DNA from: Candidatus Scalindua sp.
GTDB taxonomy: Bacteria; Planctomycetota; Brocadiia; Brocadiales; Scalinduaceae
Reading direction: 5' to 3'
Assembly (NCBI GenBank): GCA_031316235.1
Contig: JALDRA010000001.1
Coordinates: forward strand, 2,370,001 to 2,402,000
DNA length: 32,000 nucleotides
The notes under the pieces were generated by a model. The model did not search any database. It saw only the letters and a program-made list of their open reading frames with translations, and was not told the DNA's origin. Positions 2 through 22,578 of this stretch are shown here, in pieces; within the stretch, counting starts at the first letter, position 1; the number at the start of each line of letters is the position of its first letter. A program made the translations under genes and the position numbers.

Positions 2-913
2 GTAAATGCGCGAAATAAAAAGAATGAAGTACCCTTACACCTTATTACAGAAGGGCCCCTGGACATCCTTAAGATGGCAAAATTATTACTATCTGCAGGT
101 GCGGATGTGAATGCCAGTGATGCACAGGAAAAAACACCATTACACTGGGCAGTTGAACGGAATTACTACGACATGGTTAAGGTGCTCGTGAAAAAAGGAG
201 CTGGGGTAAATGTAAAGGACAAAAGTGGTGATGCACCCCTGCATCAAGCAGCTCAAGGGGGTAATAAGGCCATAGCCAAGTTTCTCATTAAAAAGGGAGC
301 TGATATCAATTTACAGAATAATAATGGCAAGGCCCCGATAGAGAATGCTGTTCATAATAAACATAAGCGTTTGATCAAATTGTTTATTGCATATGGTGTA
401 GATATAAATACCAAATTTAAGGATGGACAAACAATGCTCCATCTGGCTGCTCAGGAAAATATGTCAAGGATTGTTAAACTCCTTATTTCCAGAGGAGCTG
501 ATGTTCAAGGGCAGGATAAAAACGGCAAGACCCCTTTGCATATAGCGGCTTACGAGGGACATGAGAGTATGATCAAATTGCTGTTGAACAGAGGGGCGGA
601 CATTAATGCGGAGGATGAACAGGGCAACACCCCTTTATATTTCGTGATCAAGCAGGGGAATTATGACATAATGAAATTACTCATTATTAAGGGCGCGGAC
701 ATAAACCACAGAAACAAGAGCGGCGAAACACCATTACACTGGTCGGTTGATTGTGGGACAAAGGATCAACAAAAATTGATAAAGGTGCTTTTAAAGTATA
801 AAGTTCATATTAACGTAAAAGATGTGAATGGCGAAACACCTCTCTACTGGGCAAACCAGAGAGGCCATAACGACATTGTTAAAATACTCGAGAGATCAGG
901 AGCTAAAGAGTAG
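2..913 (+). CDS. Ankyrin-repeat protein, 5' end outside window
   Basis: The frame is open from nt 2 (VNARNKKNEVPLHLITEG...) into the listed ORF 74..913. It holds about 8 tandem 33-aa ANK units with the TPLH...GAD(V/I)N signature, e.g. EKTPLHWAVERNYYDMVKVLVKKGAGVNVKD and GKTPLHIAAYEGHESMIKLLLNRGADINAED. Confidence 0.9.
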   Translation, partial: VNARNKKNEVPLHLITEGPLDILKMAKLLLSAGADVNASDAQEKTPLHWAVERNYYDMVKVLVKKGAGVNVKDKSGDAPLHQAAQGGNKAIAKFLIKKGADINLQNNNGKAPIENAVHNKHKRLIKLFIAYGVDINTKFKDGQTMLHLAAQENMSRIVKLLISRGADVQGQDKNGKTPLHIAAYEGHESMIKLLLNRGADINAEDEQGNTPLYFVIKQGNYDIMKLLIIKGADINHRNKSGETPLHWSVDCGTKDQQKLIKVLLKYKVHINVKDVNGETPLYWANQRGHNDIVKILERSGAKE

Positions 914-2839: not shown

Positions 2840-5800
2840 ATGAATAGTAAAAAAGTGGCAATATACACATCTTATGATGGTTTTCGGATAAAATCCGGGA
2901 AAAGACGGAGTGAGTATACCAGCAATCAGGCTCTGGTTTTTAGAAAAATCAAAAACCAAATCGGTTTCAGTATAGTTACTGCTCTGTTAATTTCCGTGAT
3001 GCACATTGTAATGTGTGAAATCGGGAATTGCAACCAAACTTCTACGGTCGAGAATTTAACGGAAAAACAGGCTGAAACCATAAAATATATAAATAAGATC
3101 CTTGAAAATCATGAAACGTATCTGATTCGTCAGGGATCAGAGTTAGGCATCCTCAGGGGGAAATTAAATAAGCTTGAAGCTTCACGTAAGGCATTACCTG
3201 CTGATAAGACAGGTGGAGCAGCCCTCGATTTCAATTCGGAGCTTAACGGTATTATTAAAGAGAGGGTAAACACCTTAAAAGAGACGATAAAAGTCAGAGT
3301 GGAGATTGTTAAAGAGGCGAACACCTATAAGAGGGTTCTCAAAATCCTGTCGTCTCTGGCAGAAAGGAAAAACAGGCTGCAGGATGAATCCGCCCGACAG
3401 CCGGCATCCCAATTCGAAAGTATTCTCAAAGAAGTGGCACTTGCCAAGACACGTCTTGAAGTAATCCGGACTGCCGTGAAAGAGATGGAAATCTCCCTCG
3501 CGGCCTCAGAAACAACCCTTGATTCAGCAAAATTAAAATCTGAAGACGAGAAAAAGAGACTCGGGAAGAAGCTGGAATCGCTCGTCGCCCAGACAGCACA
3601 GACAGAGGACGAAGTGAAACAGATTGAGAATAACAGGCAGCTCCTTAAGAATAAGATTAAACTGATTGATGAAAAAACAGAATTTCTCAGAAACCAGAAC
3701 ACTCTTGCGAGACTCCGCCTGCAAACTGCCCAGATTCAAGAGAATAATATCCAGTCAGAAATTGATATCAATACGCAAATTGCCGCTATTTTGTCTCAAA
3801 GGTTCAAGGAGGAGGAGGCAACCAGTAAGAGAGCGAAAGAAGAGAGAGCGAGAATAGCGGAAGAGGAGAGAAACAAAAGAACAGAGGAGGAAAAGGTAAA
3901 GATTGAACGAGAGAAGGAGCTGGCATTAAAAAAAGCGGATGCAGCCCTGCAGAAACAGATCGAGGAGATATCGCCGGAAAAGAAAAGGGTCTTGGAGGTT
4001 GAAGCTGATGTTCACAAACAAGAGGGAATTATCGCAACGATAAAGGATGAATTAATCAACGAAGACACGGAAAGGTACAAAGACCGTACCGAGCTTAAAA
4101 TGGTATCAGATGCGATCGAAAAGATGCTTGGCGGTGAAAATACCTCCAGTGAAATCGATGAAGAGCTGCAAATCATTGAAACCCACTTAAAAAGAGCGTC
4201 CGGCAAGGTAGAGACCATTCAGGGGTTTCTGGTTGCTGTCGAAAAGCAGAGAGCCATCATAAATGAAAGTTTGGAAAATGTACGTGCAACTCTGTCGTCA
4301 ACCACACCCGGGCAGAAATCAAGTATAGAAAAAGAGGCGGAGGGCTTTTCAGACAAGGTACAGGCGGAAAAACTCGTAAAGTTTGCAGATTTGCGGTTGA
4401 AACTTATCGAAGAACAGGCTGAGCTTATACAGACCAAAATAGAAAGGCTGAATGAACGGCTGGAAATAAACAAGATTCTATACGAGAAATTGATGCGGTC
4501 CAAAAAAGAATTTTCACAGATACGGGCTGCAAATGTCTGGGCAAGGCGTGAGAATACGATTTCAAGAGATACCTTCCAGTCAGTACTCTCTGATATAAGG
4601 AGTCTAAAAAACAAGTCGGTTGGTTTCTTTAACGTATCAATCCAGAATGTAAAAAAAATCCGTCTCTTTCTTTCAGACACGGGGAATATGCGGGAAGTTG
4701 TTAAAAAACTCTCTATTATCACAGCCGTTATCCTGCTTTCATATTTTATGAGAAGTTATCTGAAGAGGTGGGCAAGAGAGAAGAAAGAGAAGTTCATAAC
4801 GATTACCCCTCAGACTTTTTTCACCTTCAAGCTCGTACCGGGACTCCTGCAGATCATGCTTGATACCTTGACGGTATCTCTCCTGTTTGTTATCTCTTTG
4901 TCAATATCTATTACTGTACCATCCAGGGCACCCCTACTCCTGTCCGCCATGTATGGATTTGCTATCTTCTCGGTTTATAAACTTCTTAAAGGCTTTGTTG
5001 AAGAGTCTTTCAGTCCCTATGGCGGAAAGCGGTGGGCCAAAATTCCCTATTTTTCTGCCAAGCTGTTGTTCCGGGATTTAAACATACTTCTCATCTTTTC
5101 CGCTGTTTCTCTTACATTACTGTCAGTCCTGTCCGCTCACCAGTATGCTAAAAAAGATGTCATGGAGCTGATATGGTTTGTGTACCGAATCGTTTCGCTG
5201 TTTCTCATCATCCTCATTGCCGCCAAACAGAGATCATATCTGCTCAGGTTATTACCCTATCCGGGGAGTGCTCTCGGCAAGATTATTAATAAAATCATTA
5301 ACCTCATTTACCCATTGCTTATAGGCTTTGTTATCTCGCTCTTTGCCTTACGAAGCCTTGGATTCGTCTTATTGACTTATGCGCTGATATGGACCCTGAT
5401 AAAAACAATATCGGTAGTAATCATTTTCTACATAGCACATGTGTATCTCTTGAAGCTGCTTCTGCATTCACAGAAAAACCGGTTAAAGGAGTGCAGGCTG
5501 CTGGAAATAAAAGAGATGGAAACTGAAGAACGGGGAATAAATGTCAGGTTCAGGGTGTACCAGAAAATTTTACACTATGGGACGGTAACCCTGTCAGTAG
5601 TTATGGTACTCGGGATATTGAATGATACCTTTAAAGATGTAGTCAGCTCTCCTGCCGCACCAGTGATGTTTCTTGAGGTGTATGAAAGTGTTTTGTATGT
5701 GCTTGTTTCAATAAAGAACAGTTTGACCTATAAATTTGGCCTTGCTGAGGGAAGATATACCACACCCTTTAAGATGCTGTTTGGTATCCTGGTCCTGGCG

Positions 5801-6565
5801 TTTGCGTTCGTACTTGCAAGGTATTTGAAAGGAGTCCTGCAGACACGATTTTATGATAAGTCTACGTTGGAACTGGGGGTTCAACAATCTATTTCGGCCG
5901 GGGTTAAATATTCCATAATCGGAATTGCCGCTATCATAGGATTAAATGTTGCAGGTATCCCTTTACAGAGCCTCACAATTTTCGCCGGTGCCTTTGGTAT
6001 TGGTGTAGGTTTCGGGATGCAGAATATCATCAACAATCTGGTAAGCGGAATTATCATTCTTTTTGAGAGGCCGATTAAGATTGGAGATGTAATAAATATT
6101 CAAGGGGATATCGGTGGTACAGTAGAAAATATCAGTATCCGAAGCACCACGATAAAGACCTTTGACAGGACAACGGCAGTTGTGCCTAACTCCAAGTTCC
6201 TGGAGGGAAGCGTAATCAATTGGGTACATGGAGGAGATATGCTTCTGAGGGCAAAAATAATTGTTGGTGTGGCTTATGGCTCAAATACCGAACTTGTCCA
6301 TGAGTGTCTGTTAAAAGTCTCCCATTCACATCCTGATGTGGAGAAAGATCCTGAACCGGTTGTACGCTTTGCAGAGTTTGGGGACAGTTCCTTGAATTTT
6401 CAATTATATGTCTGGGCCCACATAAGCAAACGATGGATGGTGATCAGCGATTTGCACTTTGCAATAGACAAGATTTTTAGAGAAAACGGAATTGAGATTG
6501 CCTTTCCGCAGAGAGATCTGCACATTCGCTCTGCGATACCAATGAAGACAGAGTTCACCAGGTAA
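2840..6565 (+). CDS. MscK/KefA-like giant mechanosensitive channel (MscS family) with a long N-terminal coiled coil
   Basis: The C-terminal MscS core reads GIGVGFGMQNIINNLVSGIIILFERPIKIGDVINIQGDIGGTVENISIRSTTIKTFDRTTAVVPNSKF. A multi-TM block spans about aa 640-1010. About 550 aa are charged, heptad-rich sequence (EEERNKRTEEEKVKIEREKELALKK). The start is uncertain: codons 8-45 are encoded by repeat copy 3, and the next ATG is at 2999. Confidence 0.85.
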   Translation: MNSKKVAIYTSYDGFRIKSGKRRSEYTSNQALVFRKIKNQIGFSIVTALLISVMHIVMCEIGNCNQTSTVENLTEKQAETIKYINKILENHETYLIRQGSELGILRGKLNKLEASRKALPADKTGGAALDFNSELNGIIKERVNTLKETIKVRVEIVKEANTYKRVLKILSSLAERKNRLQDESARQPASQFESILKEVALAKTRLEVIRTAVKEMEISLAASETTLDSAKLKSEDEKKRLGKKLESLVAQTAQTEDEVKQIENNRQLLKNKIKLIDEKTEFLRNQNTLARLRLQTAQIQENNIQSEIDINTQIAAILSQRFKEEEATSKRAKEERARIAEEERNKRTEEEKVKIEREKELALKKADAALQKQIEEISPEKKRVLEVEADVHKQEGIIATIKDELINEDTERYKDRTELKMVSDAIEKMLGGENTSSEIDEELQIIETHLKRASGKVETIQGFLVAVEKQRAIINESLENVRATLSSTTPGQKSSIEKEAEGFSDKVQAEKLVKFADLRLKLIEEQAELIQTKIERLNERLEINKILYEKLMRSKKEFSQIRAANVWARRENTISRDTFQSVLSDIRSLKNKSVGFFNVSIQNVKKIRLFLSDTGNMREVVKKLSIITAVILLSYFMRSYLKRWAREKKEKFITITPQTFFTFKLVPGLLQIMLDTLTVSLLFVISLSISITVPSRAPLLLSAMYGFAIFSVYKLLKGFVEESFSPYGGKRWAKIPYFSAKLLFRDLNILLIFSAVSLTLLSVLSAHQYAKKDVMELIWFVYRIVSLFLIILIAAKQRSYLLRLLPYPGSALGKIINKIINLIYPLLIGFVISLFALRSLGFVLLTYALIWTLIKTISVVIIFYIAHVYLLKLLLHSQKNRLKECRLLEIKEMETEERGINVRFRVYQKILHYGTVTLSVVMVLGILNDTFKDVVSSPAAPVMFLEVYESVLYVLVSIKNSLTYKFGLAEGRYTTPFKMLFGILVLAFAFVLARYLKGVLQTRFYDKSTLELGVQQSISAGVKYSIIGIAAIIGLNVAGIPLQSLTIFAGAFGIGVGFGMQNIINNLVSGIIILFERPIKIGDVINIQGDIGGTVENISIRSTTIKTFDRTTAVVPNSKFLEGSVINWVHGGDMLLRAKIIVGVAYGSNTELVHECLLKVSHSHPDVEKDPEPVVRFAEFGDSSLNFQLYVWAHISKRWMVISDLHFAIDKIFRENGIEIAFPQRDLHIRSAIPMKTEFTR
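2862..2974 (+). repeat. Intergenic three-hairpin repeat, copy 3 (short form), inside the 5' end of the MscK ORF
   Basis: TATACACATCTTATGATGGTTTTCGGATAAAATCCGGG...AACCAAATCGGTTTCAGTATA. It lacks the 27-nt internal module. It lies head-to-head with copy 2, 98 bp away. Confidence 0.85.
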
Positions 6566-6686
6566 TGCAGTTATCAATTTTTATCCTTTTCCCGGTAGTG
6601 AGAGAAATCGTAAGCGGGAAGCATGCAGATGGTAGAACACTTTTATGAGTCCTGGGTTTGTTTTTTTGTGAAGGGGGGAGATTTCA

Positions 6687-7247
6687 GTGTTAAAAACGGG
6701 TAAAAAACTGCTTTTTGTTACCGTAATGGTCTATTTTCTTGTAAACGCTCCGGTAATTGCTGAGGAACCTTCACAGAAGCGCATGTTTGTATCACCGCAG
6801 GATATCGGAATAGAAAAGGCAGTAGATAGAGCAAAAAAGACAGTGAGAATGATAGATGATATGTATAAGACATTTATTGTTCTTGTCACAAAAGAGTATG
6901 TGACAGATCCGACCATGTTTTCTGCTCTTATTCTCTCCAAAAAAGTGTTTGAAGCAATGAGTAAAAAGGGGTGGCATGAGGCGAGATTGCTGGGCACAGA
7001 CGAAGCTCCGCATAATCCGGAGAATTCCCCGAAAGATGGTTTTGAAAGAGATGCCGTTGAAGCGTTGATCTCCGGGAAAAACTATTATGAAAAAGTTGAA
7101 ATGGTCGAGGGCAAATACTATTTACGCTCAGCTACCAGTGTAATTGCTGTTATGGAGGGATGTACGATCTGTCACCCGGGTAAAAAAGTCGGAGATCTTT
7201 TAGGTGCCATCTCATACAGAATATCGGTGAATGAGTATTTTGATTAA
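6687..7247 (+). CDS. DUF3365 (Tll0287-like) periplasmic c-type haem protein
   Basis: GTG start preceded by GGGGGGAG. Signal peptide KKLLFVTVMVYFLVNAPVIAEE. A single CXXCH motif (CTICH, nt 7161-7175) sits near the C-terminus, after NPENSPKDGFERDAVEALISG...YYLRSAT. This layout matches what I remember of DUF3365. Confidence 0.7.
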   Translation: MLKTGKKLLFVTVMVYFLVNAPVIAEEPSQKRMFVSPQDIGIEKAVDRAKKTVRMIDDMYKTFIVLVTKEYVTDPTMFSALILSKKVFEAMSKKGWHEARLLGTDEAPHNPENSPKDGFERDAVEALISGKNYYEKVEMVEGKYYLRSATSVIAVMEGCTICHPGKKVGDLLGAISYRISVNEYFD

Positions 7248-7266
7248 AAAAGGACAAGGATAGGTT

Positions 7267-8577
7267 ATGTCAGTTAATAACGCCTTATTATCAGTTATCA
7301 GGAGACTGATCGAAGAGGATCATATGATGGCTGCACGAATAATCGAGAGCCTGGATGATTCAGAGGCTCTTGATGTTATGAAAGCCATTCCTCCTCTGCA
7401 GTCCGTAAAGGTGATTTATGACCTGCAGCCAAGTCTTGTTGCCTCATTTCTGATTCAGCTTCCGGATGAATTCTTCGAGGGAATTGTTGACAATCTGGAT
7501 CCTCAAAAAATCAGTGATATAATACTCAGCTTACCGGATGAAATGAGAGACAACCTGCTTGAAAAGACTCCTGAAAAGAAAAAGAGACTTATCAGGGAAT
7601 TGCTCACGTTCCCGGAAGACAGTGTCGGCCGTATTATGAGCAGAGACTATCCGGCATTTCGTGTTGACATAAAAGTGATGGACGTTATTAACAAGATCAG
7701 GTTTATGGCACGCAGGAAAGCATCATTTGCTTACGCTTATGTGGTGGACAGTGATCATCGGTTAGTAGGGATATTGCGTATGTTCGATCTCCTTGCAGCA
7801 TCAAGAGATGCTACGGTAGGGGCAATTATGAGAAAAGAGGTATTTTCTATAGACAGCTTTTCAAGTATAGAGCAAGCCAGCAACTATTTTAAAGTACACA
7901 GGTATTCAGCTGCACCTGTTGTGAATAGCGAAAACCGCCTGCTTGGAATTGTGAAAGCTGAAAAATTAATCCAGGAGGCATGGGAAGATATTGGTGAAGA
8001 TATCCAGAAGATGGTTGGAGTAGCACCTGAGGAACGCACATTTTCATCTATATGGTTTTCTCTCCGCAAACGTCTGCCGTGGCTTAATGTGAACCTGGCA
8101 ACTGCGTTTGCAGCCGCCGGTGTAATTGCAGTATTTGAGGATATTATCCATCAGATTACGGCCCTGGCAATCTTTCTTCCTGTTGTTGCAGGGCAGGGGG
8201 GTAATGCTGGTGCACAGACCCTGGCGGTTGTCATGAGAGGGCTGGTAATGCGGGAAATTTCCAGGGGCAGGTTTAAAGGGTTGATCTTGAAGGAGGGTAT
8301 TTTAGGCACTCTGAATGGAATTATCATAGGTCTCATAACCGCTGTGATAGCATGGATGTGGAAGGGTAATCCGTACCTGGGAATCGTTGTTGGTCTGGGA
8401 ATGATTGTAAATATGGTCGCAGCAGGTTTTGCCGGAGCTATAATCCCGATAGTTATGAAGAAACTTGGGATAGATCCGGCTCAATCATCAAGCATTATCT
8501 TGACAACAATTACTGATATCGTGGGATTCTTTGCATTCCTGAGCTTTGCTGTGATGTTCCAGGAATTTATCATGTAA
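7267..8577 (+). CDS. mgtE: Magnesium transporter MgtE
   Basis: 436 aa. The N-domain is acidic and helical. A CBS pair follows (VGRIMSRDYPAFRVDIKVMDVINKI..., VGAIMRKEVFSIDSFSSIEQA...AAPVVNSENRLLGIV). The TM domain carries PVVAGQGGNAGAQTLAVVMRGL and ITTITDIVGFFAFL. The gene starts 19 nt after the upstream gene. Confidence 0.92.
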   Translation: MSVNNALLSVIRRLIEEDHMMAARIIESLDDSEALDVMKAIPPLQSVKVIYDLQPSLVASFLIQLPDEFFEGIVDNLDPQKISDIILSLPDEMRDNLLEKTPEKKKRLIRELLTFPEDSVGRIMSRDYPAFRVDIKVMDVINKIRFMARRKASFAYAYVVDSDHRLVGILRMFDLLAASRDATVGAIMRKEVFSIDSFSSIEQASNYFKVHRYSAAPVVNSENRLLGIVKAEKLIQEAWEDIGEDIQKMVGVAPEERTFSSIWFSLRKRLPWLNVNLATAFAAAGVIAVFEDIIHQITALAIFLPVVAGQGGNAGAQTLAVVMRGLVMREISRGRFKGLILKEGILGTLNGIIIGLITAVIAWMWKGNPYLGIVVGLGMIVNMVAAGFAGAIIPIVMKKLGIDPAQSSSIILTTITDIVGFFAFLSFAVMFQEFIM

Positions 8578-8818
8578 AACTTCATGTTGAAAATGAGACA
8601 ATCAAGCTTAACGGCAGAGGCCGGCTGCCTGTTGAAACAGGTGCGGAAATCGGTATTTTTTAGTCAATACAGATCAGGCGGGTATATTTTAGTGAAGAGT
8701 GTGGGAATTTGCAATTGTCATCCTTTCTCGATCCGCCTCGGGAATCAGACGCAGCGAGATGGTTTCTTACACAAGGTAAGTCTGGGGGGCAGTATCCTCA
8801 AAAAATTATGACTACCTG

Positions 8819-10816
8819 TCAGCGCATTGATTCGAGGAGATATTCCAGAACTTTATCAGGGCGATAGAGTTTTTTCGTAGTCAGGAAATACGGCAACATA
8901 ACAGGAGGATCGATCATTTTTCGCTGAATGAGTTCATTAATTATATCCAGATACTCGAACGAGGTTTTGCCGACAAATAATGGACTTATATCACAGATTT
9001 TGAATTGCTGCAATGCCATCCGTAACCCTCTTAAATATAAGAAATCTTTTGTAAAACCTCCACCACGATAGACACGAGCGGTTATTTTGAAGGCTTCATT
9101 CTGATTTAAGGCATAATCATCCACCAGGATCTTGAATGTTCGGGAAAAATCGTAGTCTTTTATCATCATTTTAACGGCAATTACTCTCAATGCGAGCACT
9201 TTCAACCGCTGCAACGTTAAATTGCCTGTCATGTATTCACTTAATACTGCAAGACCCTCCTGTGTGCAGGTATTACCGGGTAATCCCAACCTGAAAATTT
9301 TCAGTTTCTGGTTTTCACTATTAACTGTTGTCAACATATGCACTTCCAGTTCATGATGAATCAATGCATTGAGTTCTCTTTTATTAATGCAGGCAGCCCT
9401 GTTAATCAGAATCAATCTGCTTGTTGATTTTACCATTGCGTTTGCAATAATGTTGTCGGTCAAAAGAACCCGACACTTTATCAGATGCTTATCAATAGCA
9501 GCGAGAAATGCATCTCTTATCCCTGCGGCATCTATCGTACTCGCTTCGTTTGGCTCAAACTCTTTAGCAAACAGCAGAAATTCCGCCGTCTTATTATCAT
9601 TCTCTGATGGTTCTCCATAATAACGCAACGAGTTATAGAGAAACTTTTCTTTACCTACTGATGCTATCAGGTCTACTTTTATGGCATAGGCATCAATAAC
9701 ATCCCGATAAAACTGCTGAATACTGACATCACGAATATCATCAACCGGTAAACGATAAAGTTTTTCCCGAAATTCATAGGGGTTGATATCCAGATGCTTA
9801 TAAGTAAATGAGGGGACATAGTTGTAATTTTTTGAAAAGAAACGCTTTTTCTCCACCGCTATGTTTTGTGGATTAATATACGTTAAGGTTTCAATCCCCC
9901 TGGCAAGATGATACAGCTGTTTATCCAGGTTGAGAATCGATGACTCCAGGTTTGAGGATAAAAGTACCGCTTTTTTCGAGTGATTTTTATTCGTGTGATA
10001 TTTAGAGAAGTAAAGAGCGGTTTTTAAAATGGACTGTTTCAATACTTCTTTTAATTCAGGTAAAACCAGTGGGTATACATCACCGGTATTTTCCTTCATA
10101 AATATTTTTTTGACTTCGGTTGGCAATACCAAGGTATTACGAAAATGTTGCCTGACAAAGTTAGCAAGGTAACCCCGCCCGAAAAACACTTCATCAGTTG
10201 CGGAACGCACATCAACATTGTGAAGAGTAGTCTTGTTAAGAGTTTTATTCCAATGCTGAATTACCGAATTCCACCGATGTTTGTTCAGTTGTTCAGTGCC
10301 GATATTAAAAACAGGTGTGTCGGTTATCGTTAATCTTTGGTAATTGTAGGAATGAATATCATAGATCAAACAGGATCCGAACTGTGACTGCAGCTTCTCT
10401 AAAAGCACACTAAGGATTCGATAAAAAACATGATGTTTGTGTTGGCTTGTTTTGCATTCATCTTCTGTCAACGGGGAGCTCCAGACAGATTTTCCCCATG
10501 CCCGCTCATATACACACTGTTCCGGGGAACGGTTTAAATCATATTCATAGCGAGAATCAAGAGCAACCAGCGTAATCGGCAGGGAAGAGATTAAATCACC
10601 GGTAAAAGGGTCTTCTTCGTATAAACGTTCCGCTTCATCCAGTGCGCATTTATTAACTAACTCCTGGCGTAAACGGTGCCCATTGTGAATTGCGGTACAG
10701 ATAAAGAAACTGTACTCATCAATCTTGAGAGAGAATGATCCGCCTTCTATTTCAGCCTGAAAAGTCTCTCCATTTTTTATTGCCTCAATGCAGGCACGCT
10801 CAGACAACAATTGCAT
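8819..10816 (-). CDS. Fusion protein: N-formylglutamate-amidohydrolase-like (FGase) domain plus DUF1704 / QEGLA-motif (MATCAP-like) putative metallopeptidase domain
   Basis: The listed ORF starts at TTG 10822. The ATG at 10816 has AGGTGA 6 nt upstream. The N-terminal half carries FGase-like motifs (FICTAIHNGHRL, CLIYDIHSYN). The C-terminal half carries HELEVH (nt 9338-9355) and QEGLA (nt 9248-9262). It overlaps the upstream ligase gene by 17 nt. Confidence 0.75.
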   Translation of the reverse strand: MQLLSERACIEAIKNGETFQAEIEGGSFSLKIDEYSFFICTAIHNGHRLRQELVNKCALDEAERLYEEDPFTGDLISSLPITLVALDSRYEYDLNRSPEQCVYERAWGKSVWSSPLTEDECKTSQHKHHVFYRILSVLLEKLQSQFGSCLIYDIHSYNYQRLTITDTPVFNIGTEQLNKHRWNSVIQHWNKTLNKTTLHNVDVRSATDEVFFGRGYLANFVRQHFRNTLVLPTEVKKIFMKENTGDVYPLVLPELKEVLKQSILKTALYFSKYHTNKNHSKKAVLLSSNLESSILNLDKQLYHLARGIETLTYINPQNIAVEKKRFFSKNYNYVPSFTYKHLDINPYEFREKLYRLPVDDIRDVSIQQFYRDVIDAYAIKVDLIASVGKEKFLYNSLRYYGEPSENDNKTAEFLLFAKEFEPNEASTIDAAGIRDAFLAAIDKHLIKCRVLLTDNIIANAMVKSTSRLILINRAACINKRELNALIHHELEVHMLTTVNSENQKLKIFRLGLPGNTCTQEGLAVLSEYMTGNLTLQRLKVLALRVIAVKMMIKDYDFSRTFKILVDDYALNQNEAFKITARVYRGGGFTKDFLYLRGLRMALQQFKICDISPLFVGKTSFEYLDIINELIQRKMIDPPVMLPYFLTTKKLYRPDKVLEYLLESMR

Positions 10817-11837
10817 CTTCAATCACCTGCTTAAATTCAGTTTTTCTGATTTTCAACGTTTCCTTGGAAATGACGACACCTTCAACAAAGTCAATTACCT
10901 GTTTTTGTAATTTTGTCCGATTCAGTCGATTTATGCGCACAATGCCACCCGGACTTAATACATTCACCTCAATGAGCTTGCCGTTAATTACATCAATGCC
11001 TACAAAAAAAAGTCCGTCTCTGATAAGTTTGACACCAATATGCCTGCATAATGCTTTTTCAGCTTTTGTTAAATTGTGTTTAACTACCGTACCTCCGGCG
11101 TGAATATTAGAACGGATATCCCCTTGGGCCGGTATACGCCGCATAGCGCCAATCGGTTCAGCATTCAGCATCAGAATGCGGATATCGCCTTGATCTGCGC
11201 CTTCAACATATTCTTGTAAAATCACATAGTTTCCGCCTTCACGACTGTTGATATAAAATTCAAGCAGCGAATGGAAGCTCTGCTGTGCGTGTTTTTCAAT
11301 TAAAATAATACCTCTGCCACCATACCCATCCAGTGGTTTCATAATCATCTTATCGGTCTTGGACTCTCTTAAAACCTCTTCTAAATACTCTATGTTTTTT
11401 GAGACATGCGTGACCGGAATAAATTTGTTTCCAGGGTCATCAAAGGCTGAGGTATAGAGTTTATTATTGGCAATTCGCAGCCCATCAATATCATTCATAA
11501 TAAATACGTCGTTACGCACTGAATCGAGAAAGTTGAGTGCGATGGGATTTAAAGGGGGCTCACAACGCATAATGATGGCATCAAAACCGGCCAAAGGCAG
11601 CCTTGACTTTCTAAATTCTGCTTTTTTGTAGAAACTTACAATATTGCCGGGAATAACAGCTTTTTTTTTCAAGATATGACACAGTGCACTTGAAACAGTA
11701 TCCCGCATTGTCAAGTTGCTCGGCGTAGCCACAGCTACGGTGTGTTTTCTTGTAAAGGCCTCATGGATAAGTCGAAGCGTAGTATCCGTTTCAGCCTCAA
11801 TCTTGGACCACGGATACATTAAAAAGAGAATATTCAT
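10800..11837 (-). CDS. Glutathione-synthetase-like (GshB family) ATP-grasp ligase
   Basis: 345 aa. Collinear with E. coli GshB as I remember it: DAIIMRCEPP vs DVILMRKDPP, NNKLYTSAF vs NEKLFTAWF, MIMKPLDGYGGRGI vs IILKPLDGMGGASI, GDIRILMLNAEP vs GDKRVLVVDGEP, RIPAQGDIRSNIHAGG vs RIPQGGETRGNLAAGG, FVGIDVINGKLIEVNVLSPGG vs FVGLDIIGDRLTEINVTSPTC. GGGGAGAA lies upstream of the ATG. Confidence 0.85.
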   Translation of the reverse strand: MNILFLMYPWSKIEAETDTTLRLIHEAFTRKHTVAVATPSNLTMRDTVSSALCHILKKKAVIPGNIVSFYKKAEFRKSRLPLAGFDAIIMRCEPPLNPIALNFLDSVRNDVFIMNDIDGLRIANNKLYTSAFDDPGNKFIPVTHVSKNIEYLEEVLRESKTDKMIMKPLDGYGGRGIILIEKHAQQSFHSLLEFYINSREGGNYVILQEYVEGADQGDIRILMLNAEPIGAMRRIPAQGDIRSNIHAGGTVVKHNLTKAEKALCRHIGVKLIRDGLFFVGIDVINGKLIEVNVLSPGGIVRINRLNRTKLQKQVIDFVEGVVISKETLKIRKTEFKQVIEDAIVV

Positions 11838-12036
11838 GAAAGGTTCTCCCCTGGTTATCTGAAAAAGCAGTTTTGCGTAGAGAAGAAAAGATATTTTTTT
11901 CCCGTTCGCCTCTTCAAAAAGTTTGGTTCATTATTTGTAAATTCTTCGTTGTTTTATGATCACATGAACAATTGGAATGGCCAGCATAAAGATCCAGCAG
12001 GATAACGGGAGGCAGTCATCCCAATTGAGAAAACTA

Positions 12037-12065
12037 TTGCAATCGCACTAATATTAGCCTACTAT
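12037..12065 (+). promoter_or_regulatory. Candidate sigma70-type promoter for the GDH gene
   Basis: TTGCAA (12037-12042), a 17-nt spacer, then TACTAT (12060-12065), about 35 nt upstream of the ATG at 12100. It overlaps the 11-mer TATACTCATCT, which is also the head of the repeat family. Confidence 0.3.
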
Positions 12066-12099
12066 ACTCATCTTTTTATCAAAATTCTAGATAATACTT

Positions 12100-13515
12100 A
12101 TGGAATCAATTCTTCCTTTTTTTGAACAGGTAAATATTCATTTCGACAAAGCCGCAAGATACACAAATTATGCTCCCGGTATATTGGAGGAGATTAAGGT
12201 TTGCAACAGTGTCTACCACATGACGTTTCCCCTCAAACGAGATGACGGCACGATTGAAACCATTCACGCGTGGAGGGCAGAACACAGCCACCATAAATTA
12301 CCCACAAAGGGTGGAATTCGTTTTAGCACCCTGGTGAACGAAGATGAGATAATGGCACTTGCCGCATTAATGACGTATAAGTGCGCTGTTGTAGATGTCC
12401 CCTTTGGTGGAGCAAAAGGCGGCATTCAAATCAACGTTGAAAAATATTCAGTGGGAGAACTTGAACGTATTACCCGACGTTATACGTATGAACTGGTCAA
12501 TAAAAACTTCATTGGTCCCGGCATTGATGTGCCGGCACCGGATTATGGTACGGGGGAACGTGAAATGGCGTGGATCCTGGACACATACAACGCAATGACT
12601 CCGGACAAACTTGACGCCCTCGCGTGTGTGACGGGTAAACCGATAGAACAGGGAGGTATGCACGGGAGGAAAGAAGCGACCGGTCTTGGAGTATATTATG
12701 GCCTCCGTGAAGTGTGCAGTTTTGTGGAAGATATGAAAGCACTTGGTCTTCTTCCCGGTTTAGAGGGAAAATCGGTCGTGATTCAAGGATTTGGGAATGT
12801 AGGCTACCATGCTGCAAAATTCCTGATGGAAGGAGGAGCGATCATCACGGGATTGGCTGAATATACAGGAGCCATTCATAATAGCAGAGGGTTGGATGTA
12901 GAAAAAGTCAACTCATACCGCAACGAGAATGGTTCGATCCTGAATTTTCCCGGTGCCACGACATTGGCAAATCCGTCAGATGTGCTTGAATTGGAATGTG
13001 ATATTCTGGTTCCTGCTGCCCTTGAAAATCAGATTACCAGCAATAATGTCAATCGTATTAAAGCCCGAATCATTGCAGAAGCGGCAAACGGGCCGGTTAC
13101 TCCGGCTGCGCACGATCTTCTCCTGAAAAAGGGTGTTCTTGTTATCCCTGACACCTATTTAAATGCCGGAGGGGTAACTGTTTCGTATTTTGAATGGCTT
13201 AAAAACCTGTCTCATGTTCGTTTTGGACGGATGGGAAGACGTTTCCAGGAAAATAGCAGCAAGGATTTTATTGTGGCGATAGAGAAGATTACGGGAAAAA
13301 AATTTCCGAAAGAGGAATTAATAAAACTGGTGCATGGCCCCGAAGAGAAAACATTAGCAAAATCCGCCCTTGAAGACACTATGACTGTAGCTTACAACGA
13401 AATCCGGGAAACCAGAAACCAGCACGGCTCAAGCGTCGACTTGCGGACAGCTTCCTTTATCAAGGCAATTCACAAGGTTGCCTGTTCTTATATGGAACTG
13501 GGAATTTTTCCATAA
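12100..13515 (+). CDS. Glutamate dehydrogenase, animal GLUD1-like subtype with an antenna-like insertion
   Basis: [92 protein letters not shown]. There are 80 residues between YFEW and DLRTA, against 38 in the second GDH in this window. Confidence 0.92.
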
Positions 13516-13748: not shown

Positions 13749-15494
13749 TTAATTTTCCTTGTGCTTTTTCAACCAAACCATCTGATAGGAATCCAATGTC
13801 AATTTCTTACTATGGATTTTTGTATGTGTGAGAATGTCAACCAGAGGTTCAGGTTCCTCAAAGGGAAGAGTAATTTCCACGCACTTCCCGTCAAAATTAA
13901 ATAGTGCAAGCACAAACTCAATCTCATCTTTAGCGTATCTTTTTATAGCAAATACCTTGCTCCCCAGATCAGGGATCTCAAATTTGTTGAGTGGATGAAA
14001 GGCCTCTTCGTTTATTCTTATGGACAAGAGCTGTTTATATCTTTTAAAGAGAATCTTTTGCAGGCTCCCCTCTTCTTCAAGCAGCTCTTTTAAATTGTCG
14101 TAATTTAATCTGTCTCTGTTAATGGATCTGTTGATTCTCGTTTTTCTCACCGCTTCAGGATAATTATGGGAACCAACTAATGAGTGAAAATAGATGCCGG
14201 GAACTCCCGGCATTACGAGCACAACTGCCTGTGAGAGTATCATTCTTTTTACCCTGACATTATCATCCTCCTTCGGATCTGTCAGCAAATCCAGATAACT
14301 GCAATTTAACTCGTAAGGAGACACCTCTTCATCGCCAATTGCCCTGTATGATACCAGCCCCCCATGCTCAACAGTTGATTGCACCAGAAATTCCATCTCG
14401 TTTTCGTCTAAAATCTCATTTACCGCTCTTACACCGACACCGTCATGACTTGCAGTAAAATTAAAAAAACATACCCCGCTATCCGGGAGAGTCAGCTCTT
14501 TTGCCCAATGGGTAAGCTTTGTTGTATCTGATTTTAATATGGAAAACGCTAAAAGGGGAGGAAGCGCAAAATTGTAAACCATTTGAGCCTCGTCATCACC
14601 CCCTCCAAAGTATGAGACATTTTCACCATGAGGTACATTTGTCTCTGTTATTATTATGACCTCAGGTGCAACTGCATGCATAACTTCGCGCATAAGCTGA
14701 ATCAACTCGTGGGTCTTCGGGTGGTGAACACAAGGTGTTCCGAACTCTTTCCATATAAAAGCAATTGCATCAAGTCTGATAAGTGATGCGCCTTTCTCGA
14801 TATAAAAAAGCAGTACGTCTAAAATCTTGAGTAATACTTTATAATTAGCATAATTCAAATCCACCTGATCATTACTGAATGTTGTCCAGATGTTTCTGAT
14901 TTTTGCCTCATCATCGATAAACTCAGTTAAAAGAGGAGAGGTTCTTGGTCTTACAACTTTAGATAAATCTGTACTCGGATCAACATCGATGAAAAAGTTT
15001 TCAAACGCGGGGGTATTCGCCAGATAATCAGTAAACCATCGGTTTAACTGTGATACGTGATTAACGACACAGTCAAACATTATCCGATAACTCTTCTTGA
15101 TCTCTCCTATGTCTTTCCAGGAGCCCTTGAGCGGGCAGACACCTTTATGGTTCACAATTGAAAAACCATCATCGGAAGAGTAAGGGTAAAATGGTAAAAT
15201 ATGTACCGTGTTTATCGCATCCTGTACATACTCATTTAAGAATCTTCGTAAGGTAGCAAGTGCAGTTTCGCCTTGATGAAAAACCTGATCTCCGTAAGTT
15301 ATGAGGATAATATCCTTCTGGGTCAAGTAATACGGGACACTTTCCACTCTCTGTTTGTACTTGAAGATTAAGGCGAGAATCTTCTCATAAGCCCTTGCAG
15401 CATCCTCCTGAGAATAGATAAATTTCAATGACTCTTCGATGAGTTTTAATCTATTTTCTGTAGTATGCCGAACATAATGCTCTTCATTAGCCAT
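13749..15494 (-). CDS. GH13_18 sugar phosphorylase (sucrose-phosphorylase family, YcjM/glucosylglycerate-phosphorylase-like)
   Basis: 581 aa. ILITYGDQ, VHILPFYPYSSDDGFS, DCVVNHVS, IRLDAIAFIWK (nucleophile Asp), IITETNVPHGEN (acid/base Glu), FTASHDGVGV. Substrate cannot be assigned from sequence. Confidence 0.85.
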   Translation of the reverse strand: MANEEHYVRHTTENRLKLIEESLKFIYSQEDAARAYEKILALIFKYKQRVESVPYYLTQKDIILITYGDQVFHQGETALATLRRFLNEYVQDAINTVHILPFYPYSSDDGFSIVNHKGVCPLKGSWKDIGEIKKSYRIMFDCVVNHVSQLNRWFTDYLANTPAFENFFIDVDPSTDLSKVVRPRTSPLLTEFIDDEAKIRNIWTTFSNDQVDLNYANYKVLLKILDVLLFYIEKGASLIRLDAIAFIWKEFGTPCVHHPKTHELIQLMREVMHAVAPEVIIITETNVPHGENVSYFGGGDDEAQMVYNFALPPLLAFSILKSDTTKLTHWAKELTLPDSGVCFFNFTASHDGVGVRAVNEILDENEMEFLVQSTVEHGGLVSYRAIGDEEVSPYELNCSYLDLLTDPKEDDNVRVKRMILSQAVVLVMPGVPGIYFHSLVGSHNYPEAVRKTRINRSINRDRLNYDNLKELLEEEGSLQKILFKRYKQLLSIRINEEAFHPLNKFEIPDLGSKVFAIKRYAKDEIEFVLALFNFDGKCVEITLPFEEPEPLVDILTHTKIHSKKLTLDSYQMVWLKKHKEN

Positions 15495-21557: not shown

Positions 21558-21694
21558 GTTAGCTGGTGGTTGAACGAAAACTGCCCAGATTCAAGGCGCG
21601 TACTGATTTTGTAACCGGAGCGTACTCAAGTACGTGAGTATTTCGAAATCAGTACAGAACGCCGTAGATGGGTAGTTTTCGTTCAACCACTAAC
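21558..21694. repeat. 137-nt near-perfect nested hairpin (palindromic element)
   Basis: The outer arms are GTTAGcTGGTGGTTGAACGAAAACTgCCCA (21558-21587) and TGGGTAGTTTTCGTTCAACCACTAAC (21669-21694). The inner arms are GTACTGATTT / AAATCAGTAC and CGTACT / AGTACG. The right end touches the TAG stop (21694-21696) of the DUF1848 gene. Confidence 0.85.
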
Positions 21695-22578
21695 TATCTT
21701 CCAGGCAGCTGAGTACTTTCCGGGTTGTGCAGTTTATGGCACTTTTCTGCACGATCGAAATTTGATGTAGCATAGCAGTAAACACACTCATACAGGCAGG
21801 TGTTATAGCTCCCGATATCACGGCTTTCTACGCAGTGACAATTTTTTCGCTGTGTTAAATCTTTTTTGCCGGTTACGGAGATATTGAAGAGCCTGGTGAT
21901 CAGCTGATCATCAACGCATTTACCCGGACTGACGCCATAGGGGTGAAATTCATTCTCCTCGGCACAGGAATATATCTCCACCCCGTATCTGTGTGCAATT
22001 TCCAACAAGTTGGTAATGATATCTCTCATGGTATCGGGTTTTGGTCTCTCAATGAAATGGCCCTCATGTACAATCTTATCAAGACGTTTTTGAATTTTAC
22101 GGTAGAAATCTACAAAGCTGATAATGGATCGTTTTGTAGATCCGTGCAGACGGGAAGTTATTTTTTCATACGTTTGAAGATGAAAATCCTGTGTCATGTC
22201 GTCAGCTAGAACAATGGGGTCGTATCTCCAGATTACTTTTTCCGGCCCTATTATCTCTGCCAGTTTTCGAAACGTCCCTATTCTGGTTTCCACATCCGGC
22301 ATTTTGGGATCGAGGTATCCTGGATTATCCATCAGGGTGTAAAGAAAGTAGTAACGGTATCCGAGTGAATCCAGCTCTGACAGCCTGGGCATGAGAGGTT
22401 TCGGGTTGCGAGTCCAGAAGACAATGACATCTACGTCTTCCGCTCGAAGCGAAATTCGTGAGACCTGGTGAGAATTATAAGGGTTTTGCACTTCACAGAA
22501 TCCTGCATGAATACGATTCATGAACCATTCAGCATAAAATGCAGGAATGTCCGTACGTCTACTGGCACTGATTATCAT
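21694..22578 (-). CDS. DUF1848 family protein (C-terminal Cys cluster)
   Basis: MIISASRRTDIPAFYAEWFMNRI...VIVFWTRNPKP...WRYDPIV and C-terminal CHCVESRDIGSYNTCLYECVYCYA. This matches DUF1848 as I remember it. Confidence 0.75.
   Translation of the reverse strand: MIISASRRTDIPAFYAEWFMNRIHAGFCEVQNPYNSHQVSRISLRAEDVDVIVFWTRNPKPLMPRLSELDSLGYRYYFLYTLMDNPGYLDPKMPDVETRIGTFRKLAEIIGPEKVIWRYDPIVLADDMTQDFHLQTYEKITSRLHGSTKRSIISFVDFYRKIQKRLDKIVHEGHFIERPKPDTMRDIITNLLEIAHRYGVEIYSCAEENEFHPYGVSPGKCVDDQLITRLFNISVTGKKDLTQRKNCHCVESRDIGSYNTCLYECVYCYATSNFDRAEKCHKLHNPESTQLPGR

Follow-up and report, generated by a model that had tools for sequence, protein, structure and literature searches.

In a 32,000-nucleotide (nt) stretch of Candidatus Scalindua sp. 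DNA, hereafter called the window, two translationally coupled genes encode a GshB-like ATP-grasp ligase of the PRK12458 type and a hydrolase in which an FGase-like amidohydrolase domain is fused to a MATCAP/DUF1704 domain. All coordinates below count from the first letter of the window. The pairing of these genes is not due to chance: they lie together in 134 of 136 informative loci, with ligase and peptidase in one operon as in RimK/RimB, and constitute a conserved functional unit. By analogy with RimK/RimB, we propose that the operon is a system for the ligation and removal of glutamate-type amides that is tied to osmotic or ionic homeostasis, and we assign this reading a probability of roughly 50%.

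The proposed mechanism is as follows. The operon would be self-contained and horizontally spread, and would combine ATP-dependent formation with zinc-dependent hydrolysis of an amide to an amino acid, most likely glutamate, whose alpha-carboxylate is free. The ligase, predicted to be a sister of GshB and RimK, would turn a carboxylate into an acyl-phosphate and then add the amino acid. The co-translated fusion would provide two carboxypeptidase-type sites, one FGase-like, with a fold related to M14 carboxypeptidases, and one a MATCAP-like gluzincin; it would strip the ligated residues, the two sites probably cleaving different bonds or acting one after the other. Candidate substrates are a small gamma- or alpha-glutamyl peptide, a compound of the N-acyl-glutamate type, or a conserved protein with an acidic tail at its C-terminus. 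The use would lie in low-osmolarity adaptation and ion balance, in the manner of RimK/RimB.

We infer the shared substrate, the glutamate-type chemistry and the physiological role. Known members of all three module families act on amides of amino acids, typically glutamate, whose alpha-carboxylate is free: GshB and RimK attach a residue at the C-terminus, and FGase frees glutamate from an N-acyl group. Enzymes of the MATCAP family strip Tyr, and also Glu, from acidic tails (PMC10499314).

Co-induction of the two genes at low salt is an observation, made in one species. When Photobacterium damselae at 1% NaCl is compared with 3% NaCl, the adjacent genes annotated as 'glutathione synthase' and QEGLA are up 38-fold and 27.5-fold, respectively, and both are among the top low-salinity-induced genes, as is rimK at 52-fold (PMC10308900). 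The Rlo operon, which also encodes a protease and an ATP-grasp protein, affects hypo-osmotic tolerance (PMC11957051). Further, genes for Mg2+ transporters (MgtE, CorA, CNNM) or MscS channels are present in the flanks of 15 of 167 loci, from about ten lineages by raw count, and both an MgtE and an MscS-type channel are encoded within the window itself.

The ligase and the fusion hydrolase

The ligase gene occupies 10800-11837 on the minus strand and is an open reading frame (ORF) of 345 amino acids (aa). The initial annotation described its product as collinear with glutathione synthetase, and Pfam agrees, finding GSH-S_N at residues 1-121 (71.7 bits) and GSH-S_ATP at residues 125-306 (184 bits). 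Among the NCBIfam models the best is NF009110/PRK12458, whose cut-off is exceeded (452.7 against 408 bits). The scores fall under both GshB equivalog cut-offs, narrowly for NF003573 (269 against 272) and widely for TIGR01380 (223.1 against 299.05), and one close relative exceeds the former (275.9 against 272). Judged from its sequence, the ligase is GshB-like but in a separate subfamily, NF009110/PRK12458.

With canonical GshB the ligase shares the two-domain architecture, the ATP-grasp catalytic residues and the lid loop, as well as the database annotation. In an alignment with a sequence of E. coli GshB that agrees with the PDB alignment over residues 72-301, the identity is 29% and the equivalents of K125, K160, R210, R225, R233, N235, D273, E281 and N283 are conserved; the equivalents of the ATP, Mg and catalytic residues are kept, together with that of Arg86. 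What sets it apart from GshB, besides the equivalog scores and the subfamily, is a number of extra insertions, a C-terminal helix of about 30 residues that is missing from E. coli GshB, and the obligate linkage to hydrolases. An AlphaFold2 model of the ligase, with a predicted local distance difference test (pLDDT) score of 77.6, has E. coli GshB as its best structural match (1gsa, template modelling (TM) score 0.76), with RimK about equally near (TM 0.75-0.78).

The fusion is encoded at 8819-10816 on the same minus strand, stop codon included, as a 665-aa ORF from its ATG; there is a TTG two codons upstream. Its N-terminal FGase-like domain (residues 1-295, 9932-10816) was assigned from PF05013, which matches residues 38-195 at 58.1 bits (cut-off 28.9), and from Foldseek. 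The C-terminal gluzincin domain (residues 296-665, 8822-9931) was assigned from PF08014, matching residues 324-651 at 326.4 bits against a gathering score of 27, and from the QEGLA family TIGR02421, whose cut-off is likewise exceeded (391.7 against 338.65 bits). A metagenome-assembled genome of Candidatus Scalindua has an annotated protein with the same sequence as the fusion (our P0001).

The motifs named in the initial annotation are all present. In the FGase half these are TAIHNGH (residues 41-47) and DIHSYN (153-158). The motifs AIHxGH, EEDP, SRxExDLNR, DxHxY, NIGT and ExKKxFM of this half are invariant, even when compared with the stand-alone FGases of the distant gene trio described below, which are 33% identical. 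The relation to HutG is limited to the FGase fold and the Pfam family: the score against the HutG equivalog TIGR02017 is 17, with a cut-off of 278.75, and there is no hut operon context, as no hut genes were found in the window.

In the DUF1704 half, the HExxxH zinc-binding and catalytic motif reads HHELEVH (residues 487-493, 9338-9358), and Glu520, the presumed third zinc ligand, is part of QEGLA (residues 519-523, 9248-9262). Aligned to human MATCAP (7z5g/7z6s), HHELEVH lies over RHEIGTH (RHQIGTH in 7z6s, which is a mutant), TQEGLA over TEEGLA, and GGFTKDFLYLRG over GCFSKDQVYLDG. The presumed metal ligands, HExxxH and the downstream Glu, are thus in register with MATCAP, to which the identity is only about 20%, and neither motif varies among 20 homologues. 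For the fusion, a confident AlphaFold2 model (pLDDT 91.4, predicted TM score 0.88) gives Foldseek matches to MATCAP 7z5g/7z6s at TM 0.68-0.72 (expectation value (E) about 4e-9), to the FGase structures 2q7s (TM 0.71) and 2odf (TM 0.69), and, more weakly, to M14 carboxypeptidases. Taking sequences and models together, the catalytic residues are intact in all three modules and the enzymes look active.

The two genes meet in a translational-coupling junction at 10800-10828 on the minus strand. As the initial annotation had noted, the end of the ligase gene, with its stop codon at 10800-10802, overlaps the start of the fusion, with its ATG at 10814-10816, by 17 nt, and the fusion has its own AGGTGA (10823-10828) 6 nt ahead of the ATG.

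One of the nearest parallels is RimK/RimB, the system for polyglutamylation of S6, which adds and removes C-terminal glutamates and makes poly-alpha-glutamate. There too a ligase of the GshB/RimK clade of ATP-grasp enzymes is encoded with an opposing peptidase, often together with an M14-like deacylase (AstE/AspA-like). In addition to the co-induction of rimK with the cassette in P. damselae, rimB-rimK-AstE-like clusters adjoin the cassette in Thiomicrorhabdus and in our locus L082. The window system differs in that its ligase has GSH-S_N in place of Rimk_N, and in that a gluzincin (MATCAP) and an FGase stand where RimK/RimB has a retropepsin.

A second parallel is the eukaryotic set of TTL/TTLL ligases with MATCAP/TMCP and CCP peptidases. 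Here an ATP-grasp ligase stands opposite a zinc carboxypeptidase of the MATCAP fold, with HExxxH and a downstream Glu, and the fold of a second hydrolase is akin to that of M14 carboxypeptidases, which is also true of the CCPs (the weak Foldseek matches). In contrast to the eukaryotic enzymes, the window ligase is GshB/RimK-like and not of the TTL family, the enzymes are either fused or encoded in one operon with translational coupling, there is no tubulin, and the identity to MATCAP is low, as given above.

Distribution and forms of the module

In a genome scan with one genome per species, 80 loci encoding the fusion were collected, 78 of them informative, i.e. with enough upstream sequence. 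The ligase is directly upstream of the fusion on the same strand in 77 of the 78, at an identity of 62-92%, and in 57 of 58 informative metagenome loci, where the identity goes down to 42%. In most related loci the ligase match ends 2-14 nt beyond the fusion start. The co-occurrence of ligase and DUF1704 fusion seen in the window holds in other genomes.

The hosts span at least seven phyla, including Planctomycetota (Scalindua), Deinococcota (Trueperaceae), Nitrospirota, Campylobacterota (Sulfurimonadaceae), Desulfobacterota (Desulfobacula) and Bacteroidota (Bacteroidales), with many marine Gammaproteobacteria. This patchy phyletic spread points to horizontal transfer of the pair. Outside Gammaproteobacteria no further gene is conserved beside the pair in the genome loci, so the two genes are the unit, and a substrate should already be present in every recipient cell. 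One Scalinduaceae genome (contig CBDCUS010000014.1) carries two whole cassettes about 400 kb apart (L001 and L043), whose fusions are 85% and 83% identical to that of the window. The metagenome scan, made with P0257 as the query in order to find stand-alone relatives, yielded mostly fusions once more.

A search for the MATCAP domain among 1.84 billion representative proteins gave 2210 clusters, which group by length into three classes. The window type, an FGase-MATCAP fusion about 665 aa long, makes up class a. Class b comprises short MATCAP proteins of about 380-450 aa. In class c, of about 635 aa, an N-terminal region of about 250 aa without a Pfam match precedes MATCAP. Between this region (the first ~250-290 residues in L162-L166) and the C-terminal part of FGase there is a weak local BLASTP match (E 6e-4), and it may be a degenerate FGase-like domain.

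In five of the seven class-c contexts sampled, the modules form a trio of separate, tightly packed genes in the order FGase (about 260 aa), N-domain plus MATCAP (about 635 aa) and ligase (348 aa). These trios occur in Bacteroidota, Thermodesulfobacteriota and rhizobia including Sinorhizobium meliloti, and are also annotated on a Mesorhizobium plasmid and on an S. meliloti pSymB-type replicon, where FGase, QEGLA and 'glutathione synthase' occupy 6072-9873 of locus L171. The trio is conserved across Sinorhizobium, Ensifer and Rhizobium chromids, with 79 Sinorhizobium records in the plasmid collection. The class-c ligases are about 30% identical to the window ligase and, like it, score above the NF009110 cut-off (486 and 461 against 408) and below the GshB equivalog cut-offs.

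Further, FGase and MATCAP are separate adjacent genes in locus L158. The strongest evidence for one shared process is this recurrence of the same three modules, whether fused or separate and in differing gene order. In locus L082 (2995-10405), a metagenome contig, a glutamate dehydrogenase gene and then a ligase gene share one strand, with a stand-alone MATCAP gene divergent from them, and a second pair encodes a MATCAP protein of 667 aa together with a ligase of 406 aa; genes for RimK and an MscS channel are nearby.

The association does not extend to the whole of DUF1704. The C-terminal half of the fusion is above the TIGR02421 cut-off as a member of that family, in its FGase-fused subfamily; the three stand-alone class-b members whose contexts were examined (426-449 aa, from Pseudoalteromonas and Legionella) differ from it in having neither a ligase nor an FGase neighbour. 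No ligase neighbour was found at two class-c relatives either, and with these exceptions the idea that every bacterial DUF1704 protein has an ATP-grasp ligase partner was rejected. One of the stand-alone QEGLA genes, on a Legionella adelaidensis plasmid (L173, 5689-7850), lies between dapA and the glutamate racemase gene murI, which hints at a role in cell-wall peptides for that subfamily. The TIGR02421 family name presumably derives from a reporter screen with P. aeruginosa PA3697, and fhp is described as regulated by PA3697.

Weighing the alternatives

Several observations weigh against the proposal of a glutamate-type ligation and removal system for osmotic or ionic homeostasis. A ligase and hydrolases in one operon could act sequentially, in salvage or biosynthesis, and not in opposition. 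The response to salinity is documented by a single study of a single species, and the Mg2+/MscS association is modest, at about 9% of the loci in a raw count. Soil rhizobia carry the class-c trio too, which means that a purely marine or osmotic role does not hold generally. Finally, the ligase falls just short of one GshB equivalog cut-off that one close relative exceeds, which makes genuine glutathione synthetase activity conceivable.

An alternative that we regard as unlikely is the editing of protein C-terminal tails, which would correspond in bacteria to the tyrosination, detyrosination and deglutamylation of tubulin: the ligase would add a residue to the acidic tails of specific proteins, and the MATCAP-like and FGase-like domains would trim it. 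MATCAP/TMCP enzymes do work on acidic protein tails (PMC10499314), and the ligase model resembles RimK, the enzyme that glutamylates ribosomal protein S6, as closely as it does GshB. The genomic support comes from Gammaproteobacteria, where an HdfR-like LysR gene and a gene for an acidic-tailed DUF413/MaoP-like protein are directly upstream of the ligase in 44-50 of the 80 loci (at about 5400-6900 in L020-L080). In Vibrio sp. HDW18 (L169), which lacks the ligase, LysR, maoP/DUF413 and the fusion are retained. The DUF413 gene is co-induced 9-fold in P. damselae at low salt (PMC10308900).

A second candidate target in the same lineage is a Photobacterium protein of 52-57 aa (MAKLDQKFSKGSKSK...KKKRR...), without a Pfam match, with a C-terminal tail that is acidic and aromatic and has Tyr or Phe as its usual last residue. 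Two arrangements link its gene to the cassette, one at 5074-5244 on the minus strand of L026, with equivalents in about 20 Photobacterium loci, and the other at about 10229-10390 on the minus strand of L035 and L038. In P. damselae the linked gene for a 56-aa protein (RS17005) is up 18.6-fold at low salt (PMC10308900).

Tail editing is made less probable by the fact that candidate substrate genes of this kind are linked only in Gammaproteobacteria. Near the window operon, including the 262-base-pair (bp) intergenic region 5' of the ligase, a small acidic-tailed ORF was sought and none was found, and a dedicated substrate ORF within the window was rejected on this basis. Further, the final residues of the DUF413 tails vary, acidic tails are perhaps a general DUF413 trait, and the adjacency of hdfR and maoP could be inherited synteny. 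The ligase also keeps a GshB-type N-domain and lid loop, which fit a small substrate.

An extended form of this idea, which we consider quite doubtful, is a bacterial C-terminal tail code older than tubulin. PRK12458 ligases would add terminal residues and the MATCAP-like and FGase-like (CCP-analogous) hydrolase would remove them, switched by osmolarity. The targets would be DUF413/MaoP-like proteins, the Tyr/Phe-ended Photobacterium proteins and S6-like proteins elsewhere, and the bacterial system would be ancestral to the eukaryotic MATCAP detyrosinase.

It is also quite improbable, in our judgement, that the operon is a specialised but genuine glutathione system, with a condition-specific GshB isozyme and a fusion that degrades or remodels glutathione-like gamma-glutamyl tripeptides, e.g. 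by removing the C-terminal residue. Databases do call these ligases glutathione synthase, NF009110 is itself named glutathione synthetase, and the borderline NF003573 scores, the conserved catalytic, lid-loop and Arg86-equivalent residues and the structural match to E. coli GshB all fit. Glutathionylspermidine synthetase/amidase offers a precedent for a coupled synthetase and hydrolase of one thiol conjugate. On the other side are the large deficit against TIGR01380, the 29% identity to E. coli GshB, and the obligate linkage to two hydrolases, which is foreign to canonical gshB. No gshA is present in the 32-kb window or in any flank examined, the P. damselae cassette sits on chromosome II, and Thermodesulfobacteriota and Bacteroidota are among the lineages that have the class-c trio.

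Salvage or catabolism of peptidoglycan-derived or other D/L-glutamate peptides, with the hydrolases freeing amino acids from gamma-D-Glu peptides and the ligase rebuilding an intermediate in sequence and not in opposition, is very unlikely: the dapA-murI context in Legionella, the Creatininase, MR_MLE-family (which includes dipeptide epimerases) and DUF1611 genes just upstream of the trio in L165, and the weak M14 matches of the fusion model speak for it, but these contexts are single loci that find no echo across the set of 167, linked genes for Mur or Mpl ligases or for amidases are absent, and the one known ligase of murein peptides belongs to the Mur type and not to the ATP-grasp enzymes. 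A reading as a defence system was dropped, as the PADLOC anti-phage defence models gave no match to either the ligase or the fusion.

Surroundings of the operon and implications

The intergenic region 5' of the ligase (11838-12099, 262 bp) is the presumed promoter region. A consensus promoter scan of it found no site on the ligase strand, and the promoter and terminator scans yielded no more than shuffled expectation. On its other side a GLUD-type glutamate dehydrogenase gene is transcribed divergently (12100-13515, plus strand). The initial annotation had pointed to this neighbour, which is indeed there, but the adjacency is not conserved: it is seen in 2 of 168 loci, the window and L082, and in none of the 80 genome loci. 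Glutamate dehydrogenase was therefore rejected as a conserved part of the system and is kept only as a weak hint of glutamate.

Convergent with the operon, on the plus strand, are genes for a Tll0287-like protein (6687-7247) and then MgtE (7267-8577), and an MgtE gene is downstream of the cassette in the other Scalindua loci as well (L001, L015, L043). Further away, a plus-strand gene at 2840-6565 encodes a 1241-aa protein that ends in a C-terminal MscS-type mechanosensitive channel. Beyond the glutamate dehydrogenase there is a GH13 protein on the minus strand (13749-15494), which resembles sucrose phosphorylase most (TIGR03852, with 198 bits under its cut-off of 334) and may have a part in the metabolism of compatible solutes or glucosides; in L163 the trio, too, is followed by GH13 and GH77 genes. 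A 279-aa ankyrin-repeat protein (74-913, plus strand) and a 294-aa DUF1848 protein (21694-22578, minus strand) have no apparent link to the operon.

In agreement with the initial annotation, which took the bacterial QEGLA family to be functionally uncharacterised, we found no paper on the function of bacterial MATCAP, DUF1704 or PRK12458 proteins, in a search that did not cover the amidoligase survey of Iyer et al. 2009 or the S. meliloti osmoadaptation transcriptome, so that an earlier computational mention is possible. Antagonistic or coupled systems of an ATP-grasp ligase and a peptidase are already known as a kind; the present one is uncharacterised and widely shared. In thousands of genomes its ligase is annotated as 'glutathione synthase' and its hydrolase as 'flavohemoglobin expression-modulating protein', and both names are probably misleading. 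In one inference of glutathione pathways PRK12458 is simply counted as GshB (PMC3462692); if the names mislead, inferences that count it in this way would be wrong for these genes.

The operon is a compact, mobile module with three active sites. It gives the MATCAP fold a bacterial enzymatic context, in which a MATCAP-like hydrolase is encoded with an ATP-grasp ligase, a pairing that mirrors the eukaryotic tubulin ligases and carboxypeptidases. As tractable hosts such as S. meliloti and Photobacterium carry the system, the hypothesis is directly testable. The strong induction at low salt points to an unrecognised glutamate-linked osmotic or ionic response in marine bacteria, including the anammox Scalindua.

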